A stretch of 61,215 nt of DNA, taken from a virus (taxonomy: Duplodnaviria > Caudoviricetes). The translations under genes and the position numbers were made by a program. Where the stretch lies: IMG/VR virus record IMGVR_UViG_3300022833_000412, positions 1 through 61,215 of that record; one strand, written 5' to 3'. The notes under the pieces were generated by a model. That model worked only from the letters and a program-made list of their open reading frames with translations. It searched no databases and was not told the DNA's origin. This document shows positions 2,049 through 22,521 of the stretch, piece by piece (position 1 is the first letter of the stretch; the number at the start of each line of letters is the position of its first letter).

Positions 2049-2537
2049 ATGGCAATATTAACCCAAGATGAGATTTTCTTCACTCAATTTGAACCTAAAA
2101 CACAGAATAGGTTTATTATGTATATGGACGGTATACCTTCCTACATGATAAAAGGATTAACTGGATTAGGATTCGAACAAGGGGAGATCGTACTTAACCA
2201 TATAAACACCTACAGAAAGGTGAAAGGTAAACTTAGATGGAACGATATTAGCATGACGTTATTTGATCCAATCACGCCGTCCGGAGCTCAAGCAGTAATG
2301 GAATGGACTAGACTACATCACGAATCCGTAACCGGAAGAGATGGTTATTCTGACTTTTATAAGAAAGAAATAGTATTAGACCTAGTAGGACCTGTAGGAG
2401 ATGTAATCTCAGAATGGGTAATAAAAGGAGCATTTATTAAGAGTGCAACATTCGGAGATCTAGATTACGATAATGACTCTGCAGTACAGACCATTGGATT
2501 AACTCTCGGATGTGATAGCTGTATCTTAAACTTCTAA
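2049..2537 (+). CDS. Tail tube protein (T4 gp19-like)
   Basis: 162 aa directly after the sheath. Motifs FEPK..NRF, KGKLRWNDISMTLFDPI, W.IKGAFIKSATFGDLDY. Confidence 0.92.
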   Translation: MAILTQDEIFFTQFEPKTQNRFIMYMDGIPSYMIKGLTGLGFEQGEIVLNHINTYRKVKGKLRWNDISMTLFDPITPSGAQAVMEWTRLHHESVTGRDGYSDFYKKEIVLDLVGPVGDVISEWVIKGAFIKSATFGDLDYDNDSAVQTIGLTLGCDSCILNF

Positions 2538-2592
2538 TAGAACATACAACACCCTAGTTATATACCTAACTAGAATAACATACAACTTAATT

Positions 2593-2621
2593 AAAACACA
2601 GTTTGATACTGTGTTTTTTTT
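2593..2621 (+). terminator. Rho-independent terminator
   Basis: AAAACACAGT-TTGAT-ACTGTGTTTT stem followed by a T run, after the tail tube gene. Confidence 0.8.
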
Positions 2622-2679
2622 ATGTATATTCACTAACTGATTAAAAGCGATAACATTATATTTATAATAAAATAAAACT

Positions 2680-3063
2680 ATGTGCGGATGCGGATGTAAT
2701 ACATGTGAGACAGGAGTAACAGTAACACTAAACAAAAGGTTAATAAATAAAGAGAATTTATCAGAAGGTATGAGGTACCACTTAGACAAAAAGCAACATC
2801 TATCTAATACCCTATATGAAAAAGGTTCGGAAGAGTACTTTAGGTTATTCTACGAAGCCCGTTACCTTTATTCTAGAAGTAAAATAAATCTTTCAGGAGA
2901 AGATTTAAAAATAATACTTGAGACAAACCTAGGACACTACGGATCATTTAAAGGAATACCAGTACCTTTAGATTACCCTAGAAACGGTAGAGTTTATATA
3001 GAAGGTTTAAAAAGTAAACATTTATACCCAAACCTAGAAGTCATCAATCTTCGAGTATTATAA
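2680..3063 (+). CDS. Hypothetical protein (late; N-terminal CxCxCxxC)
   Basis: 127-aa ORF preceded by TATTTATA at 2659. Confidence 0.7.
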   Translation: MCGCGCNTCETGVTVTLNKRLINKENLSEGMRYHLDKKQHLSNTLYEKGSEEYFRLFYEARYLYSRSKINLSGEDLKIILETNLGHYGSFKGIPVPLDYPRNGRVYIEGLKSKHLYPNLEVINLRVL

Positions 3064-3274
3064 CATATACTCAACGCATAGAAACGATAGGTATCTTAGT
3101 GCTGACCCAATATACAGAGGGATAAGGTATCAATGTAAAGCATAGAATTAAAACTTGCTGAAACACTATCAAACTACTACAAGTAAAGTAACACCTGTTA
3201 ACATTACTTTTATAACATCAAAGTTGCAATAAAGTAGAAATCATATATATTTATAATTAAATAAATACACCTAC

Positions 3275-4015
3275 ATGGCAGAATTTAAGTTTCCAACAGA
3301 AGAGATAGACCTCCCCTCAAAAGGATTACTCTATCCACTAGACAATCCCTTATCAAGCGGTAAGGTTGAGATGAAGTATATGACCGCTAAAGAAGAGGAC
3401 ATACTAACTAACCCCAACTACTTAGCTAAAGGAATAGTTATCGACAAATTACTACAGTCCCTAATTATATCAAAAGTAGATTATAATGACCTAATTCAGG
3501 GAGACCAGAATGCAATCATGATCGCAGCACGGATACTAGGGTATGGTAAAGATTACGAAATCAAGCATGATAATGTAACACAGGTAATAGACTTAACAAG
3601 TTTAGAAGATAAAGAATTTAACGAAACACTTATAACCCCTAATGTAAATGAATTCACCTTTACACTACCTCATTCAAAAGTTGAATTAACATTTAAAATA
3701 CTAACCGTAGGTGATAGTAGTAAGATTAAAAGGGAGTTAGAAGGTTTAAAGAAAATCAATAAAAACGATAACCCGGAAATGACTACCCGTCTTAAGCATA
3801 CAATAACTTCTGTTGATGGAGATAGAGAAGCTAAGACAATTAGAACCTTTGTAGATACAGCATTACTTGCAAAAGATGCAAGAGCATTAAGGGGTTATAT
3901 AAGCGATGTACAGCCAGATATAAACCTTATTGTAACAGTAGAAACAAGTAACGGCGAGGAGGACGTTATTCTTCCAATAACTGCCACCTTTTTTTGGCCT
4001 GACTCAACAGTATAG
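3275..4015 (+). CDS. Tail/baseplate-hub assembly chaperone (T4 gp26-like)
   Basis: Motifs IDLPSKG, MTAKEEDIL, GDQNAIMIAARILGYG. Located between tube and tape measure genes. Confidence 0.8.
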   Translation: MAEFKFPTEEIDLPSKGLLYPLDNPLSSGKVEMKYMTAKEEDILTNPNYLAKGIVIDKLLQSLIISKVDYNDLIQGDQNAIMIAARILGYGKDYEIKHDNVTQVIDLTSLEDKEFNETLITPNVNEFTFTLPHSKVELTFKILTVGDSSKIKRELEGLKKINKNDNPEMTTRLKHTITSVDGDREAKTIRTFVDTALLAKDARALRGYISDVQPDINLIVTVETSNGEEDVILPITATFFWPDSTV

Positions 4016-4259
4016 GAAACATATATTCGACCAAATACATCAAATAACCTTCTTCGGCAAAGGAGGGTATTCGTTCACCGAACTCTACGAACTTCCTATA
4101 CATTTAAGAAAGTATATACACAGTTCTATAAAAGAACATTACGATAAGGAGAATAATACAGAAACAAACGCAGAAACTTTAGCATCAGATATAAAATCCG
4201 GTGCAATCCAAATACCGGAGTATGCACGAGGGAGTAAGTTAAAGTATAACGGAGGGTAG
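3990..4259 (+). CDS. Start-less downstream frame of the tail chaperone (probable frameshift extension, G/GT-like)
   Basis: The +1 frame is open 3981-4259 with no ATG/GTG/TTG. It overlaps the U7 run (3989-3995) at the chaperone 3' end and reads FFGLTQQYRKHIFDQIHQITFFGKGGYSFTELYELPIHLRK. It fills the gap before the tape measure gene. Confidence 0.7.
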   Translation, partial: FFGLTQQYRKHIFDQIHQITFFGKGGYSFTELYELPIHLRKYIHSSIKEHYDKENNTETNAETLASDIKSGAIQIPEYARGSKLKYNGG

Positions 4260-4277
4260 TCTAAAACACTACCCTTT
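4253..4277 (+). terminator. Hairpin/terminator
   Basis: AGGGTAGT...ACTACCCT stem followed by TTT, at the end of the frameshift ORF. Confidence 0.5.
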
Positions 4278-4291
4278 ACTATTTATAATAT

Positions 4292-6625
4292 ATGGCTGAC
4301 GATTCAAGTAACATTTCAAAAGAAGCTTTACAGATAGAAGACCAAAGAAGACTTCTACTTAGAGACCAACTCCTTAACCAGCAAGGTATTGTAGAGTCTT
4401 TGAAGGAAGCTTTAGGTATAAAGACTAGGTTAACAGAGTTCGAAGGAGAACAGCTTAAAACCTCACGGGAAATAGCAAAAGCGTTAAGTAATCAAAATAC
4501 ATCCCTAACTTCTTTAGCAGATAAGAATAAACAAATTGAAAAAAATAAAGCTTTAATTGCAAGAACCTCTCTTTCTCAAAGTATACTTGAGAGTAAAAAT
4601 GTAAAGATAGCTATCCAACAAAGTAGTTTACTTAAAGAACAACTTAAAAGATTACAAGAGGAACAGAGTAGGAAGGCTGAAAGCGGAGAGCTAAATGAAA
4701 AAGCGATTCAAGACCAACAGGCTATAGTTCAAGCAACAGAGGATCAGTACAATCTAGGTCTACAAGCACTAACTCTTCAAGAGCAAGCAGAATACTTCCA
4801 GCATGAAGCTATTCAAAACCTTACTGAAGCAACTGCTCAACGAGAGCGAGAACGGGATACGATACTAGAGATAGGAACAGCTATGGGACTTTCGGGTCAA
4901 ATAGCAAAAGGACTGAGTAAAATACCCGGATTCAAGGGACTTGAAGGAAGTGTAGGGATAGTAGAGGAAAAACTACGGCAAATAGCCGATGCAGGTGAAG
5001 AACTTCCTAGTAGTTACAAAACCTTTAGCATGATAGTAAAGCAGACAGGTAAAGACCTAGCTAAAAAACTACTAGACCCTCTTGTATCTGCAGCTTTCGT
5101 AACAACTCAAATAGCAAGTATCTTTAAGAGAATGGATACTTTAACATCCGGGACTGCAAGAAATTTCGGTATAAGTAATGAACAAGCAGGAGAACTTAAC
5201 AAAGAACTAACAGAAACCGCAACAACACAAGAAGGACTCTTCGGAAGTACTACAAACCTAAATGAAGCATTCCAGGTATTAAACAACAGGTACGGAACAT
5301 TTGCAAAGTTCGGAGAAGAGAACCTAAAAACCTTCGTAAGACTTACAAAAGAAGCAGGTATTTCTGGAGATGTAGTAGAATCTCTACAGGATACTACCTA
5401 CTTAACAGGAAAGACGTTAAAAGAACAGACTATTGAATACAAAGGACAGGTAAAGATCTTAAAAGCCACGACAGGGTTAGCTCTAAACGAAAAACAGATC
5501 CTAGAAAGTATAAAAGATGTATCTACAGCAACGAAGATACAACTAGGAGGCTCTGCAGAAGCTATAGCAACCGCAGTCTTTAAAGCAAAAGCATTAGGAG
5601 TAGAGATGAAAGATCTTGAAAACATCAGTAGTTCACTTCTAAACTTCCAATCCTCAATTGAAGACGAATTAGCTGCGGAACTCCTAACAGGTAAGCAGTT
5701 AAACCTAGAAGGTGCAAGGTATGCAGCTCTTATAGGAGATCAAGGAATGCTAGCAGAGGAATTAGCAAGCAACTTCGGTACAGTAGCTGACTTCCAACGT
5801 ATGAACGTAATTGAACAAGGAGCTTTAGCACAAGCTGTAGGATTAACAAGAGACTCCCTCGCTGAATCTTTAATGAAAAGGGAAGCAATGCTCGCCTTAT
5901 CTCAATTCGAAGGTAATACTGAAAAAGAGAAGTATGCAACCGCAGTACAGCAGCTAGGTGTTGATGGAGCAAGACTTCAATTAGGTAACGATGCCCTAGC
6001 TACACAAATGGAATCAGTCTCCTTACAAGATAAAATGGCAGCAGCAGGCGTAAAACTTCAAGAAGCACTTGTACCATTAGCTTCTGGAGTACTACCTGTA
6101 ATAAGTACAATCTTTAAATTCATAGGGGATAATATTAACGGCATAGTAACCGCTCTAAAACTTGTAATCCCATTGATGGTAGCCTATAAAGCAGCAAGTA
6201 TAGCAGCCGCAGTAGCCAACATCGCCGGCGCCGCTGCTCTTTCGGCTGGAGCTGCTGGAATAATAGCAACAGTAGCAGGAGTAGCAGCACTTGCATTCCT
6301 TACTACAATAGGGGACGGAATATTTCCTGCAGAAGGTAAAACAACAATCTCTCCGAAAGAAGGAGGTTTATTTCAAGTTAGTCCTAACGACGACATAATA
6401 GTAGCTCCAGGAATAGCTAAGACTGTTAGAAGTAACTCTAATAACAATAATAGTAACAACTCTCAACAAATAGAGAATAAGGTAAACATCACTCCTTCAA
6501 ATACAAACATAACCTTAACCTTAGACGGACAGTCGATAGGTAATGCAAATGCACGACAATCCTACAGAGTAGGTAGTAATGTAAAAGCATTTGGAGGTAA
6601 TGTAGATATGAGTGCTTACACTTAA
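4292..6625 (+). CDS. Tail tape measure protein
   Basis: 777 aa, helical and Ala/Gln/Glu-rich, with SLLNFQSSIEDELAAELLTGKQLNLE and a hydrophobic Ala-rich C-terminal segment. Follows the chaperone. Confidence 0.85.
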   Translation: MADDSSNISKEALQIEDQRRLLLRDQLLNQQGIVESLKEALGIKTRLTEFEGEQLKTSREIAKALSNQNTSLTSLADKNKQIEKNKALIARTSLSQSILESKNVKIAIQQSSLLKEQLKRLQEEQSRKAESGELNEKAIQDQQAIVQATEDQYNLGLQALTLQEQAEYFQHEAIQNLTEATAQRERERDTILEIGTAMGLSGQIAKGLSKIPGFKGLEGSVGIVEEKLRQIADAGEELPSSYKTFSMIVKQTGKDLAKKLLDPLVSAAFVTTQIASIFKRMDTLTSGTARNFGISNEQAGELNKELTETATTQEGLFGSTTNLNEAFQVLNNRYGTFAKFGEENLKTFVRLTKEAGISGDVVESLQDTTYLTGKTLKEQTIEYKGQVKILKATTGLALNEKQILESIKDVSTATKIQLGGSAEAIATAVFKAKALGVEMKDLENISSSLLNFQSSIEDELAAELLTGKQLNLEGARYAALIGDQGMLAEELASNFGTVADFQRMNVIEQGALAQAVGLTRDSLAESLMKREAMLALSQFEGNTEKEKYATAVQQLGVDGARLQLGNDALATQMESVSLQDKMAAAGVKLQEALVPLASGVLPVISTIFKFIGDNINGIVTALKLVIPLMVAYKAASIAAAVANIAGAAALSAGAAGIIATVAGVAALAFLTTIGDGIFPAEGKTTISPKEGGLFQVSPNDDIIVAPGIAKTVRSNSNNNNSNNSQQIENKVNITPSNTNITLTLDGQSIGNANARQSYRVGSNVKAFGGNVDMSAYT

Positions 6626-6664
6626 AATTAACAAACGTTCATATTTATAATAAATTAAAAAATC

Positions 6665-17526: not shown

Positions 17527-18567
17527 ATGTCACAGGATCTAAGAGCAATGCTCGCAACCATTACAGAGCAGGAAAGTGCACCTGTAGTAGAGAAAAAATT
17601 TCATTCAAGAGTTTTAGTAATAGACGCACTAAACCTCTTTTTTCGAAACTTTGCAACAATAAACTTCTTAAACAAGCAAGGAGTTCCAATCGGAGGGATG
17701 GCAGGGTTTATAAGATCTTTAGGATCTCTAATTCAACTAATACAACCGACCGGGGTTTATGTAATATTCGACGGAGTAGGTTCATCAACCAACAGAAAAA
17801 ACCTCCTACCAGAATACAAGTCTAATAGAGGTATAACTAGAATAACAAACTGGGATACTTACGATAACGTAGAAGAGGAAGGAGAGTCTAAAATAGACCA
17901 AGTAACAAGACTCATACACTACCTTCAATGCTTACCAGTAAAGACCGGAATGATAGATAAAGCAGAGGCGGATGATATGATTGCATACATGGCTGTAGAA
18001 CTACCTAAAAGAGAGAATTCAGACGTGGTAATAGTATCTTCAGATAAAGACTACCTTCAACTAGTAAATAACAAAGTAACAGTTTATAGACCAATAGGTA
18101 AGAAGTTCTACAAACAAAAAGAAGTAGCAGATGAATTCGGAATACATTCCGACAACTTTATAATATATAAAACTTTACTAGGGGATAAGTCAGATGCAAT
18201 AAACGGAATAAGAGGACTGGGACCTAAAACCTTACTAAAGAGATTCCCAGAACTAATAAACCATTCCCTAACGTTAGATGAGATCTTTGAAATATGTGAA
18301 GCTAAACTTACCCAACACAAAACATACGCGCAAGTATTACAAGCTGAAACTATGTTAAGGAATTCATACAAGTTAATGGATTTAAAAAATCCGATATTAG
18401 ATAAAAGGCAGATAGAGTATATAGAAACGCTACTCGCTGAAGATAACAACCCGTTTCATAAAAAAGAATTTTTACAACTCTACGAAATAGACGGAATCGA
18501 TCATTTTATTAGAGATATAGAAGGATGGGTTACAGAAAACTTTTTTAAGTTGAGTACTCTAAAATAA
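17527..18567 (+). CDS. 5'-3' exonuclease / flap endonuclease (T4 RNase H / PolI N-terminal-like)
   Basis: VIDALN, VIFDG, EYKSNR, EADDMIA, VSSDKDYLQL, LLGDKSDAINGIRGLGPKT. Confidence 0.92.
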   Translation: MSQDLRAMLATITEQESAPVVEKKFHSRVLVIDALNLFFRNFATINFLNKQGVPIGGMAGFIRSLGSLIQLIQPTGVYVIFDGVGSSTNRKNLLPEYKSNRGITRITNWDTYDNVEEEGESKIDQVTRLIHYLQCLPVKTGMIDKAEADDMIAYMAVELPKRENSDVVIVSSDKDYLQLVNNKVTVYRPIGKKFYKQKEVADEFGIHSDNFIIYKTLLGDKSDAINGIRGLGPKTLLKRFPELINHSLTLDEIFEICEAKLTQHKTYAQVLQAETMLRNSYKLMDLKNPILDKRQIEYIETLLAEDNNPFHKKEFLQLYEIDGIDHFIRDIEGWVTENFFKLSTLK

Positions 18568-18614
18568 ACACTTATATTAAAGTTAAATAATAGTAAACAA
18601 TAAGATAAAAAGTT

Positions 18615-19409
18615 ATGGCAGCATTAAAAGTATTATCCGACTACGGTCCGGTGTTCCAAGTAAAAGCGATAGGAGCACTACTCTCAAAGAAAGAGTTTAT
18701 TCAAAATATAAACGATATATTAACAGACGAACACTTTCCTAATCCAGCACACAAATGGGTAATAAATCAGATACTTAAGTACTGGCATAAATACCATACA
18801 GTAATATCTATGGAGATACTAACCATAGAGGTTAAAAAGCTAGAGAATGAAATACTTCAAACATCCATTAGGGAACAGTTAAAAGAAGCATATAGACATT
18901 CAGATGCTGAGTTAGCATACGTAGAGGAAGAGTTCACTACTTTCTGTAAGAATCAAAAACTAAAAGGAGCTCTTTTGGATTCTGTAGACTTGCTTAACAT
19001 AGGAGAGTATGATAGTATTAGATTCCTAATAGATAGCGCATTAAAAGCAGGTACTGATAAGAATATCGGACACGAGTACAATAAAGATATAGAAACACGA
19101 TACAGAGAAGATTCAAGACCTACTATACCAACACCGTGGCCAGATATTAATAATATACTTCAAGGTGGTTTCGGACCTGGAGACTTAGGTATAGTTTTCG
19201 GAAACCCAGGAGGAGGTAAATGCTTAGGGTATGACTCAACCATAGAAATAGAGTATCCTGAATACGGTTTACCTATAACTAATAATGACGGAGAAGAAAT
19301 AACTATGTGGGTAGAGCCTTGGGATGAGTTTAATATCGACGGTAACCATTTATACGGATGGCAAATGGCTAAGATCTTTGGGTACATAGAAGATAATAAA
19401 ACTAAATAA
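18615..19409 (+). CDS. DnaB/gp41-like replicative helicase N-terminal fragment fused to a split-intein N-part
   Basis: IPTPW..INNILQGG..PGDLGIVFGNPGGGK, then CLGYDSTIEI (intein block A) from aa 203, then a stop. Confidence 0.9.
   Translation: MAALKVLSDYGPVFQVKAIGALLSKKEFIQNINDILTDEHFPNPAHKWVINQILKYWHKYHTVISMEILTIEVKKLENEILQTSIREQLKEAYRHSDAELAYVEEEFTTFCKNQKLKGALLDSVDLLNIGEYDSIRFLIDSALKAGTDKNIGHEYNKDIETRYREDSRPTIPTPWPDINNILQGGFGPGDLGIVFGNPGGGKCLGYDSTIEIEYPEYGLPITNNDGEEITMWVEPWDEFNIDGNHLYGWQMAKIFGYIEDNKTK
19221..19406 (+). other. Split intein N-fragment (IntN, 62 aa)
   Basis: Begins with Cys (TGC 19221) directly after the Walker A Lys; acidic. Confidence 0.85.
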
Positions 19410-19420
19410 GTTATAAATAA

Positions 19421-19828
19421 ATGAAAGTAAGAATTAAAACACGTAAGATTAAGATTGGAGATCTATTCTTTAAACTAGGGGTAGAACCTTATCAAAATAA
19501 CCTTTACCTTCCTGAGTTCGATATAAAAGTTAAAACCCCCTACGGTTATAAACCTATAATGACTCTGTTCACAACAGAAAGACAATCCTCAGTAAGAAGC
19601 TACTTCAGTAACGGTACAGACATACAAACATCAGGTAAACACCAATTCAAGACAGAGAATAGAGACTGGGTAATGGCTGATGAGATAACCTCAGAAGATT
19701 TAGTTATAACAGAAACCGGAACAACTACCTTAACAAAACAAACTAAGGATAAAAAAGAGGAAGTACTCTACGACCTTTCTGTAGTGGATGTACATTGTTA
19801 TTATAGTAACGGAATACTATCTCATAAC
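19421..19828 (+). other. Split intein C-fragment (IntC, 136 aa, no homing endonuclease)
   Basis: KIKIGDLF, VKTPYGYKPI, block B TSGKH, block F LYDLSV, block G YYSNGILSHN followed by Ser (+1). Confidence 0.9.
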
Positions 19829-20602
19829 TCATGGCTTATGGTAGCAATGGCAGCTCATGCAGTACGGTTAGGTTACAACGTAGTATATTATACTCTAGAA
19901 CTTGGAGAAGACTACGTAGGAAAAAGGGTTGATTGTTACTTAACAGGGGTAGATATCGAACATATAGCAGACCATAGAACTAAGGTAGAAGGTATGGTAG
20001 AATCACTTCCCGGAAAGCTTATAATTAAAGAGTATCCGCCTAAGATGGCATCGGTATCTACAATAAGAGCTCACTTACAAAAATGCACAGACTCAGAACT
20101 AAAACCAGACCTTGTAATTATAGACTATATCGATTACCTAAGAGGAAATGTGAGTAGTAAGTTTGCAGAGAGGAAAGATGAAATAGATGATGTATACGTA
20201 GCATGTAAAGGTCTAGCAAAGGAACTTAAAATACCTATCATATCACCTTCACAAGTAAACAGAATGGGAGCTAAGGATGATATAATTGAAGGAGACAAAG
20301 CAGCAGGATCTTACGATAAGATAATGGTTTCCGACTTCTGCATGTCCTTATCAAGGAAGAAAGAAGATAAGTTAAATGGAACAGGTAGAGTTCATATTAT
20401 GAAAAATAGATACGGGATGGACGGTATGACGTTTGGAGCAAAGATGGACACCTCTAACGGACACATTGAGCTTACAGAAGATGTACCTACCTATGATGAC
20501 ACACCAGCTCCTGGTAATGCTAAGTCTTTTAACCTTATGGATAGTTTCGATAAAAAAGAACTCTCTAAGAAATTCTCACAACTTTCTACGTTTTCTTCGT
20601 AG
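19421..20602 (+). CDS. Split-intein C-part fused to the DnaB/gp41-like helicase C-terminal fragment
   Basis: After LSHN|S come VVYYTLEL, LIIKEYP, Walker B LVIIDYID, PIISPSQVNR and IMKNRYG. Confidence 0.92.
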   Translation: MKVRIKTRKIKIGDLFFKLGVEPYQNNLYLPEFDIKVKTPYGYKPIMTLFTTERQSSVRSYFSNGTDIQTSGKHQFKTENRDWVMADEITSEDLVITETGTTTLTKQTKDKKEEVLYDLSVVDVHCYYSNGILSHNSWLMVAMAAHAVRLGYNVVYYTLELGEDYVGKRVDCYLTGVDIEHIADHRTKVEGMVESLPGKLIIKEYPPKMASVSTIRAHLQKCTDSELKPDLVIIDYIDYLRGNVSSKFAERKDEIDDVYVACKGLAKELKIPIISPSQVNRMGAKDDIIEGDKAAGSYDKIMVSDFCMSLSRKKEDKLNGTGRVHIMKNRYGMDGMTFGAKMDTSNGHIELTEDVPTYDDTPAPGNAKSFNLMDSFDKKELSKKFSQLSTFSS

Positions 20603-20664
20603 AAAACCTAATTTTTTTTAAAAACCACATAAGTATTATATACAATTTAAAAATAAATAAAAAA

Positions 20665-22521
20665 ATGGACATCAGTCAAAAAATCCTATCAGACATTACA
20701 GTCTTCCTCAAGTACGCAAAATACACGCCAGAGCTTAATAGAAGAGAAGTATGGGAAGAACTTGTTAACAGGAACAAGAATATGCACCTAAAGAAATACC
20801 CGGACCTGTCGGAAGAAATAGAAAACGCTTATAAATTCGTATACGATAAGAAGACTCTACCTTCTATGCGGAGTATGCAATTTGCCGGCAAGCCAGTTGA
20901 AATAAGTCCAAACCGTATATACAATTGTGCATACGCTCCTATAGACGATTGGAGAACCTTCGGTGAGATTATGTTCCTACTCTTAGGAGGTACAGGTATG
21001 GGATACAGCGTACAAAGGCACCACATCGAAAAACTACCAGAAATACGTAGACCGAACCCTACTAAGTTTAGGAGGTTCCTAATTGGAGACTCTATCGAAG
21101 GGTGGGCAGACGCTGTAAAAGCATTAATGAAATCTCACTTCCACGGAGGATCTACCTTACGGTTTGATTATTTAGATATAAGACCTAAAGGAGCAGCCTT
21201 AATAACATCTGGAGGGAAAGCACCAGGACCGCAGCCACTTAAAGAATGTTTAGTTAAGATACAAGGTATATTAGACCTTAAAGAAGATGGAGATAAGTTA
21301 GAACCTATCGAAGTACATGATATTGTATGTCATATAGCTGATGCAGTTCTTGCAGGAGGTATTAGACGAGCAGCTTTAATATCCCTATTCTCCGCAGATG
21401 ATGAAGAAATGATATCCTGTAAATCAGGTAACTGGTGGGAGTTAAACCCACAACGAGGTAGAGCTAATAACTCTGCAACTCTACTACGAAGAAAAGTTAC
21501 TAAAGAATATTTCTTAGAACTTTGGAGTAGAGTAAAAGCATCCGGAGCAGGTGAACCAGGTATAATCTTTACGAACAATAAAGACTGGGGAACAAATCCA
21601 TGCGCAGAAATAGCACTTAGACCTTATTCATTTTGTAACCTATGTGAAGTTAACGTAAGTGACGTAGGTACTCAGAAAGAACTAAACGAAAGAGTAAAGG
21701 CTGCATCCTTTCTAGGAACACTTCAAGCAGGTTATACAGACTTCCACTACTTAAGAGAGGTTTGGAGACGTACTACAGAAAAGGATGCATTAATAGGAGT
21801 ATCGATGACAGGTATAGCTTCTGCAGCAGTACTGAAGCTAGATATTACCGAAGCAGCAACTGTTGCTACAGAGGAGAATGAAAGGGTTGCTGCACTTATT
21901 AATATAAACAAAGCTGCTCGTGTAACAACCGTGAAGCCTGCAGGGACAACCTCACTAACATTAGGGACATCATCAGGAATACATGCTTGGCATAACGACT
22001 ACTACTTAAGGAGAATAAGAATAGGTAAGAACGAGTCTCTATACATACACCTAGCAAAATACCATCCTGAACTAATAGAAGATGAATACTTCAGACCCCA
22101 CGATACCGCTGTTATAACGATACCGCAGAAAGCACCAGAAGGAGCAATACTAAGAACTGAAAGTGCAATAGAACTTTTAGAGAGAGTTAAGAAGGTCTAC
22201 ATAGAATGGGTTAAACCAGGGCATAGGAACGGAAGTAATGCACATAACGTATCTGCAACTATCTCAATTAAAGACGACGGTTGGGAAGAAGTAGCAGAGT
22301 GGATGTGGAAAGAACGTAAGAACTATAATGGACTATCAGTATTACCACACTCCTCGCATACATATATTCAGAGTCCCTTTGAAGATTGTACTAAGGAAGA
22401 ATATGAAAAGTTAATGAAAACTCTAGTAGGAGTAGATTTATCGAAAGTAGTTGAAATGGATGACAATACAGAACTAGCAGGCGAAGTAGCTTGTGGACCT
22501 CTTGGATGTCACGTAGAATAA
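20665..22521 (+). CDS. nrdJ: Class II (adenosylcobalamin-dependent) ribonucleotide reductase
   Basis: PSMRSMQFAG, IYNCA, GTNPCAEI, FCNLCEVN, TVKPAGT, C-terminal CGPLGC; no small-subunit gene adjacent. Confidence 0.9.
   Translation: MDISQKILSDITVFLKYAKYTPELNRREVWEELVNRNKNMHLKKYPDLSEEIENAYKFVYDKKTLPSMRSMQFAGKPVEISPNRIYNCAYAPIDDWRTFGEIMFLLLGGTGMGYSVQRHHIEKLPEIRRPNPTKFRRFLIGDSIEGWADAVKALMKSHFHGGSTLRFDYLDIRPKGAALITSGGKAPGPQPLKECLVKIQGILDLKEDGDKLEPIEVHDIVCHIADAVLAGGIRRAALISLFSADDEEMISCKSGNWWELNPQRGRANNSATLLRRKVTKEYFLELWSRVKASGAGEPGIIFTNNKDWGTNPCAEIALRPYSFCNLCEVNVSDVGTQKELNERVKAASFLGTLQAGYTDFHYLREVWRRTTEKDALIGVSMTGIASAAVLKLDITEAATVATEENERVAALININKAARVTTVKPAGTTSLTLGTSSGIHAWHNDYYLRRIRIGKNESLYIHLAKYHPELIEDEYFRPHDTAVITIPQKAPEGAILRTESAIELLERVKKVYIEWVKPGHRNGSNAHNVSATISIKDDGWEEVAEWMWKERKNYNGLSVLPHSSHTYIQSPFEDCTKEEYEKLMKTLVGVDLSKVVEMDDNTELAGEVACGPLGCHVE

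Follow-up and report, generated by a model that had tools for sequence, protein, structure and literature searches.

The 61,215-base virus record IMGVR_UViG_3300022833_000412 (Duplodnaviria; Caudoviricetes), analysed over its whole length and referred to here as the window, has an estimated completeness of 37% and encodes a T4 gp41/DnaB-type replicative helicase in two genes. The element that divides them is very probably a naturally split class 1 intein located in the Walker A motif of the helicase of a metagenomic phage related to Flavobacterium phage vB_FspM_immuto, in agreement with the core claim of an earlier sequence-only reading of the window. As described in that reading, the two open reading frames (ORFs) lie in different frames and 11 nt apart (spacer 19410-19420), and the ORF coordinates confirmed this arrangement. 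The 3' end of gene 1 reads ...VFGNPGGGK followed by CLGYDSTIEIEY...NKTK, and gene 2 opens with MKVRIKTRKIKIGDLF and passes from intein to extein at ...YYSNGILSHN/SWLMVAMAAH. The N-terminal intein half (IntN) spans C203 to K264 and the C-terminal half (IntC) M1 to N136, with S137 as the +1 residue; the GNPGGGK/C boundary and the 136-aa IntC stood as originally proposed, and the length of IntN was corrected to 62 aa including the cysteine (61 after it) instead of 62 after it. A start of gene 2 upstream of 19421 is precluded because an in-frame TAA directly precedes its ATG, and an A/T-rich leader similar to those of the neighbouring genes is found at gene 2. A six-frame search across the 61-kb record returned a single DnaB_C match and a single intein.

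Comparison with deposited phages identified the host protein and the exact extein junction. Pfam matches were obtained to the DnaB N-terminal domain on gene 1 (E 1.4e-4, slightly below the cut-off) and to DnaB_C on gene 2 (E 5.3e-15), and in the nearest deposited phages, Flavobacterium phage vB_FspM_immuto, the replicative helicase is one uninterrupted gene. Gene 1 residues 1-202 aligned with immuto positions 5380-5985 (58% identity, E 5e-77) and gene 2 residues 137-351 with 5986-6630 (71% identity, E 5e-100), the two matches abutting at 5985/5986 with zero bases between them. This gapless alignment fixes the extein junction at K202/S137, and the element inserted relative to immuto consists of C203-K264 plus M1-N136, a precise in-frame insertion. 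With the element removed, the P-loop GNPGGGKS would be restored in a helicase of 459 aa, compared to 450 aa in immuto, bearing out the expectation that splicing would rebuild GNPGGGK-S. Gene order in the neighbourhood is also similar to that of immuto and includes a gp32-like SSB, a 349-aa ORF, a 5'-3' exonuclease, the helicase, and a ribonucleotide reductase. No sign of this intein was seen in deposited phages at the tblastn sensitivity used: 0 of the 2395 records matching gene 2 among 50,697 phage records reached a query coverage of 80%, and in the 30 phage records listed the matches began at residue 128-140, within the extein. A megablast search of positions 18000-21000 against deposited phages gave zero matches. 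Across related phages, a comparison already suggested by the sequence-only reading, the helicase is intact in immuto and either split or contiguous in metagenomic relatives.

The Hint domain profiles recovered the intein in gene 2, with Intein_splicing matching residues 10-112 on profile positions 10-102 of 155 (E 7.2e-8) and PT-HINT matching with E 5.6e-6, both slightly below their cut-offs, and the two intein pieces summed to 36.7 bits in the six-frame search, which exceeds the cut-off. Among solved structures in the PDB, the IntC sequence matched VidaL (6vgv, E 4.6e-5) and gp41-1 (E 1.4e-4) in addition to NrdJ-1 and CatC, and the family profile matched gp41-1 (E 7.8e-11), VidaL (E 5e-10), and CatC (E 7.4e-10). 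The IntC motifs include block B (S71 to H74), block F (Y117-D118 and H125), and block G (H135-N136). Conservation was strong at the catalytic positions, with Cys1 (C203), directly after K202, invariant in 18/18 N-halves, H74, H135, and N136 invariant in 46/46 C-halves, and S71, D118, and S137 each present in at least 90% of the same 46 C-halves. The profile matches, PDB matches, and conservation thus substantiated the earlier assignment of the remaining Hint fold and of blocks B, F, and G to gene 2. Class 1 chemistry would follow from the presence of Cys1, this step being drawn from the motifs, and the evidence supports the helicase element as a class 1 intein with a Hint domain that is predicted to splice. 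An additional cysteine of IntC, Cys126 (19796-19798), stands next to the block F histidine (D-V-H-C-Y-Y) and is invariant in 46/46 C-halves although Cys1 is the expected nucleophile.

The position of the split was placed on the Hint fold using an AlphaFold2 (AF2) model of the contiguous relative L013, comprising its 193-aa intein with five flanking residues per side and based on an alignment of other contiguous forms to which the split halves were added as separate rows. The model reached a predicted local distance difference test score (pLDDT) of 92.6 and a predicted template modelling score (pTM) of 0.86; its best Foldseek match was VidaL (E 8.4e-9, TM by target 0.84), and VIA-align returned 76 chains with Z >= 8, among which inteins and related Hint domains tied at Z of about 20. 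Strands were predicted at residues 12-25 (begun by Cys1), 31-36, 41-44, and 47-50, followed by a helix (51-57), a loop (58-62), and a strand running into helix alpha1. The break of the window maps onto loop 58-62, behind the insert helix. Since IntC residue 10 aligns to Intein_splicing position 10, IntN holds only the first strands of the fold, and since alpha1 (GDLFFKL) belongs to IntC, the break precedes alpha1; the early proposal of a split after the first beta strands was borne out by both the profile position and the model. An S1 break, as in VidaL and PolB16, lies after the first hairpin and before alpha1, and the AceL-TerL and GOS-TerL inteins are broken after alpha1 at S2 (PMC13014065). 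A split of the window intein at the N-proximal S1 position, separating block A from block B, and not at the canonical endonuclease site, is therefore supported. Natural atypical IntN fragments are given as 15-37 aa (PMC13014065); the 62-aa IntN of the window and the 47-74-aa IntN of the split relatives fall outside this range because a conserved insert adds the excess.

This insert of about 45 aa was aligned and conserved in both split and contiguous relatives, with G24, P33, and G46-W47-Q48 (IntN numbering) invariant in 15/15 aligned sequences. Among the 50 solved Hint structures listed by VIA-align, at most 149 of the 203 model residues were aligned, and the insert probably lacks a counterpart in solved inteins, the alignments being reported by their first and last aligned residues. 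The contiguous relative P0055, a single cluster from a 2.8-kb contig, lacks the insert and displays a 50-residue gap compared to P0047 (66% identical), its sequence passing from ...EIEIEYE directly to QRLKQEKIKISDLF such that only the core part of IntN is retained. P0055, with its putative splicing activity, supports about 14 N-terminal residues as the core share of IntN. The insert is an accessory subdomain, of presumed function, within the first beta-hairpin and not a loose tail. Of the earlier suggestions for IntN, a short core fits P0055, and an accessory domain fits the conservation of the insert and its contacts with IntC in the model described below; the insert may be dispensable or may add affinity. 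N-halves were taken from loci since a word-based search with the IntN region gave five matches from too short a query; a profile search with IntN plus the insert gave 26 representatives, 18 of which resemble N-halves of the helicase, contiguous forms, or fragments, judging from their length and from where they match, with only P0035 independently known. The other eight were long repeat proteins (398-2581 aa) with several weak insert matches each and were rejected as repeat-inflated noise, not homology; InlB-B-repeat-like domains were found in three of the seven scanned, and the remainder were heterogeneous.

Association of the two halves, for which the sequence-only reading had pointed to structure prediction, was modelled with IntN residues 198-264 and IntC residues 1-141, using an alignment for each. 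The complex scored an interaction prediction score from aligned errors (ipSAE) of 0.81 (three runs 0.79-0.82) compared to 0.00 for the best control, at a mark reached by 58/80 solved complexes and 2/110 mismatched pairs; the runs agreed in at least 90% of contacts, and partner pLDDT was at least 80. Confident contacts placed IntN 209-214 (TIEIEY) between IntC 5-12 and IntC 35-38. IntN residues 200-220 formed a continuous contact set with IntC in the model, and eleven further contact residues lay in the insert, including 230, 232, 234-236, 249, 252, 255, 256, and 259. In a control with IntC replaced, the pLDDT of IntN fell to 42, which hints that IntN may fold upon binding. IntN contains 13 D/E and 3 K/R (net -10, pI 4.05), and IntC residues 1-12 carry a net charge of +6. 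The acid/base pairing noted in the sequence-only reading is thus real in its charges and is not specific to the split, since the charge of the 12 residues preceding the I-K-I-x-D-L-F strand averages +3.4 across 49 distinct split forms and +2.4 across 8 contiguous ones, making it a family trait that unsplit forms share.

A protein search with the IntC region yielded 65 matches, and a scan of viral contigs yielded 33 loci, 29 of them helicase loci (see the table). Split forms made up 57/65 proteins (260-408 aa), starting a few residues ahead of the I-K-I-x-D-L-F strand, and 8/65 (598-669 aa) were contiguous helicase-intein fusions. Spacers between the halves in relatives ranged from -4 to 1196 nt, and the intervening ORFs of L004-L009 and L035 were intact with 0 stops by tblastn and translation. 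The intervening ORF carried a zinc-finger-like motif at its N-terminus and matched the DUF559/MTES_1575 nuclease at its C-terminus, with NUMOD3 in 1/4 scanned, and by this domain content is a Vsr-like free-standing homing endonuclease with the make-up reported for fractured genes (PMC2677866). The endonucleases of six relatives had zero tblastn matches in the window at E <= 0.01, and the window therefore represents an endonuclease-free split state. In L027 (2864-3003), a 38-aa remnant of the endonuclease C-terminus lies behind stop codons directly upstream of the IntC start, a gene in decay. The intein of L032-L034 (about 2443-4431) sits after G-K-S and would connect the helicase family to terminase inteins.

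Table. Coordinates of the split helicase and its intein in the window, and state of the related loci (L numbers).
Feature	Position	Strand	Description	Basis
Gene 1	18615..19409	+	264-aa ORF; N-extein and IntN	
Gene 2	19421..20602	+	393-aa ORF; IntC and C-extein, plus stop codon	
N-extein	18615..19220	+	Helicase N-terminal domain, linker, and RecA-like start to Walker A Lys202	Pfam, immuto match
IntN core	19221..19262	+	Cys1 and first Hint strands CLGYDSTIEIEYPE, block A	Conservation, complex model
IntN insert	19263..19406	+	Accessory module of about 45 aa (strands and one helix, GWQ motif) and short C-terminal tail	Conservation, model
Stop and spacer	19407..19420	+	Stop TAA and 11-nt A/T-rich spacer; endonuclease gene absent	tblastn of window
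IntC	19421..19828	+	136 aa; basic first strand MKVRIKTRKIKI, helix alpha1, blocks B, F, and G	Pfam, PDB, conservation
C-extein	19829..20602	+	From Ser137 (Walker A Ser, expected +1 nucleophile): remaining RecA-like domain and stop	DnaB_C
L004-9, L014-26, L031, L035			Split, intact ORF of about 240-340 aa between halves (21/29 helicase loci)	
L010, L011			Split without endonuclease ORF, 41-nt spacer	
L027			Split without intact endonuclease ORF; 134-nt spacer with 38-aa remnant of ORF C-terminus	
L030			Split without endonuclease ORF, 4-nt overlap of halves	
L012, L013, L028, L029			Contiguous helicase inteins	
L032-34			Contiguous intein, 34% identical to window IntC, without insert; host reads like large terminase (putative)	
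L036			Truncated locus	

Ratios of non-synonymous to synonymous substitution rates (dN/dS) between L004 and L008 were 0.05 for IntN, 0.05 for IntC, 0.13 for the endonuclease, and 0.01-0.02 for the exteins, which points to strong purifying selection on both halves of the intein in this closest split clade. A tree was built by a quick method on the shared Hint core (129 columns, 94 rows of which 70 distinct), with rows P0060, P0061, and P0063 dropped as the end-motif pattern missed them; many of its forks are open, and being unrooted it was used to cluster sequences and to count the fewest changes needed, and not to read the direction in which they went. The window fell in an all-split clade of 19 rows (Shimodaira-Hasegawa-like approximate likelihood ratio test 99), six of them known to carry the endonuclease. 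Contiguous forms were scattered on the tree and required no fewer than 8 switches from one state to the other, with at least 4 forced by the starred branches. The split P0028 and the contiguous P0033 (the protein of L012) have one difference from IGDLFF through IntC and about 33 C-extein residues, differ right at the break, and have strongly diverged helicases beyond the shared tract. This mosaic has the pattern expected of homing with co-conversion and shows that the state at the break site changed recently. In the window, the endonuclease gene was most likely lost rather than never present, to judge by its distribution in the family. Positions 19404-19423 of the window share the 9-mer ATAAGTTAT with the junction between endonuclease stop and IntC start in L004, L007, and L008; the shared 9-mer hints only weakly at an earlier deletion and could be due to chance in A/T-rich DNA.

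Under the favoured explanation, gene 1 and gene 2 would be translated separately and the first 14-18 or so residues of the acidic IntN would form a strand between the basic N-terminal strand of IntC and the I-K-V-K strand (35-38), with the insert of about 45 aa packing beside the strands of the reassembled Hint fold. Splicing would then proceed by Cys1, block B His74, block F Asp118, His135-Asn136, and Ser+1 to give a 459-aa helicase with an intact P-loop, the intein being released as two pieces. Most relatives hold a Vsr-like endonuclease gene in the break, and the window would be the state in which this gene is absent, most likely by loss, with the split remaining. Dependence of the phage on splicing is suggested by the single DnaB_C match in an incomplete record.

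Several observations weigh against this explanation or parts of it. On the protein, Intein_splicing scored 32.8 bits compared to its curated cut-off of 35.8 and PT-HINT 27.1 compared to 27.7. Block B of class 1 inteins has the motif T-x-x-H, and the Thr position is here occupied by Ser71 (S71-G-K-H74). The block F His125 falls outside the invariant and near-invariant columns and is Q, F, or N in some relatives. The pass of the complex model may mirror likeness to known split inteins, a form of model memory, because split-intein complexes have already been solved. Junction support comes from assembled contigs, not raw reads, and a second, whole helicase may lie elsewhere in the phage because the record is estimated as 37% complete. 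Loss of the endonuclease rests on the family distribution, the remnant in L027, the weak 9-nt likeness in the spacer, and an unrooted tree.

The rival explanation that survives best, though unlikely, is that the intein is dead and that the helicase halves assemble non-covalently, or that the gene has lost its function and replication relies on a different helicase. Splicing of the window intein is a prediction from sequence and the record is only about 37% complete, and assembly without splicing has precedents in an intein-less fractured SbcD-like locus (PMC2677866) and in a fragmented NrdA without an intein (PMC3045599). Every catalytic position is nevertheless retained, both intein halves show a dN/dS of 0.05 in the closest split clade, and the window holds only one DnaB_C match; furthermore, the P-loop is cut between Lys and Ser, a lesion that non-covalent assembly is unlikely to repair.

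An assembly or sequencing error, in which the true gene would be one continuous ORF with a contiguous intein, was the refutation foreseen for positions 19400-19425 by the sequence-only reading, and contiguous relatives do exist (8/65 proteins, 4/29 loci). In Logan, contigs from four additional runs (X7-X10), none of them among those flagged as the possible source of the record, bridge these positions with 0 other letters and 0 gaps and do not form a single continuous ORF; their depth is low (3-5), and the runs are salt-lake metagenomes from a single year, perhaps of the same campaign. RNA data sets were absent from the sequencing runs listed. An identical gene 2 product was found on 7 contigs, the same split point is kept in 57/65 relatives with the wide range of spacers given above, and the clean succession of stop, spacer, and start is unlike the outcome of a single indel. 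Given the contigs of four runs and the break kept across the family, such an error is very unlikely. Least probable of all, and hardly credible, is translational recoding by read-through and frameshift that would fuse the ORFs into a cis-splicing precursor: the ORFs are merely 11 nt apart, but the frame of gene 1 contains two more stops within seven codons past its TAA, so that no simple read-through joins both ORFs, there is no slippery-site support for a shift, and in relatives a whole endonuclease gene separates the halves, which makes trans-splicing the family norm. An interruption of the group I intron type was ruled out, as the spacer is only 11 nt.

Further observations concern the relatives and the neighbouring genes. 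In 9/65 relatives, the protein ends in the N-fragment of a second intein (about 88-91 aa), which follows S-Q-x-N-R and occurs with the split P-loop intein in P0021, P0031, P0032, P0038, P0045, and P0048 and with the contiguous P-loop intein in P0039, P0049, and P0055. In the six doubly split relatives the helicase would form from three pieces via two different split inteins. Gene 2 of the window has no second intein, the corresponding stretch being SQVNRMGAKDD. In L004 (1601-1653), L007 (2065-2114), and L008 (2062-2114), and also in the duplicates L005, L006, and L009, the spacer that runs from the stop of IntN to the start of the endonuclease contains a motif of about 24 nt that reads N-P-G-G-G-K-(S/P) in one frame followed by TATTTATAA, a codon-variant copy of the helicase P-loop or intein-less junction; the motif was absent from L010, L014, L016, L027, and the window. 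The motif may serve the endonuclease as an operator or mimic its homing site, or it may be a scar left by recombination. Next to the helicase gene of the window, an uninterrupted gene (20665-22521) encodes a class II (B12-dependent) ribonucleotide reductase-like protein, where immuto has NrdF and NrdA.

The closest known system is VidaL (PDB 6vgv/6vgw), the best solved match of the window intein family by both single-sequence search and Foldseek, which is likewise broken behind the first hairpin, with block A on one side and block B on the other, has the chemistry of Cys1 and Ser+1, and has an IntC of comparable size; it differs in its identity of only about 16-20% and in its 16-aa IntN without the insert of about 45 aa. 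In the literature covered, only VidaL, PolB16, AceL-TerL, and GOS-TerL are named as natural N-proximal splits (PMC13014065, PMC10189870). The AceL-TerL, GOS-TerL, and Cat inteins resemble the window in being phage-borne natural N-proximal splits, with CatC a match of the profile, and differ in their S2 split after alpha1, IntN of 25-37 aa, and other host protein. The Aes123 PolB1 and CL inteins contain a two-strand insertion near the N-terminus, at S2 (PMC13014065), and are like the window in the extra strands early in the Hint fold (9hth, one of the tied VIA-align matches, Z 19.6, 146 residues aligned); unlike the window, this insertion is smaller and at S2, in cysteine-less inteins whose natural split is canonical.

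Fractured genes with split inteins and free-standing Vsr-like or GIY-YIG endonuclease genes are described by Dassa 2009 (PMC2677866), and the window is similar in its two-ORF phage gp41-type helicase with intein halves and in its relatives that carry a Vsr-like gene. The gp41-1 to gp41-7 inteins are inserted at position 356 of P-SSM2 gp41, gp41-7 without an endonuclease (PMC2677866), and the split inteins of that study are reported to be all broken at the canonical endonuclease site, the terminase locus excepted. The window is endonuclease-free, as is gp41-7, and lacks the free-standing endonuclease present between the halves in 21/29 related loci; unlike gp41-1 to gp41-7, its insertion lies in the P-loop and its break is N-proximal. 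Inteins at DnaB insertion point b, such as M. smegmatis DnaBi1, are reported to lie in the P-loop (Novikova 2016, PMC4760082). The location of the window intein in Walker A (GNPGGGK/S) is likened to theirs by motif and not by residue-level position, and the point b inteins differ in being contiguous and bacterial, the solved M. smegmatis structure 6bs8 being titled class 3. Insertion into the P-loop of DnaB-family helicases, natural N-proximal splits, and endonuclease-fractured phage genes are therefore known ingredients. A literature search, outside which fell several key papers and supplements that may list it already, gave no description of a P-loop helicase intein with this split; the apparently undescribed part is the combination of an S1 break in a gp41/DnaB P-loop intein, an insert-bearing IntN of 47-74 aa, and a Vsr-like gene at the break in most relatives.

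A broader proposition, tentative and with the chances somewhat against it when all its parts are taken jointly, is that the family displays all stages of fracturing at a non-canonical site, enabled by the insert of about 45 aa. Behind the first hairpin, the insert would have provided a loop tolerant enough for a Vsr-like endonuclease gene to settle in, and the interface added by the insert would keep a core IntN of only about 14 residues in position. The same joint proposition holds that the element may still be homing, according to the P0028/P0033 tract, and that six relatives may carry out a natural three-piece ligation.

Natural split inteins with an N-proximal break are few and valued for protein engineering, and the family offers many diverged natural pairs. 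The natural deletion in P0055 indicates a place at which IntN could perhaps be truncated, and if the core 14-18 residues suffice for trans-splicing, dozens of natural short-IntN tools with Cys1 and Ser+1 would become available. Contiguous forms, splits with an endonuclease, an endonuclease remnant, and endonuclease-free splits stand side by side among the relatives, all at one non-canonical site, and with natural near-identical pairs the route from contiguous to split intein (Dassa 2009) becomes directly testable. For the phage itself, if the favoured explanation is true, an apparently essential replication enzyme of an uncultured virus would exist only after protein trans-splicing.

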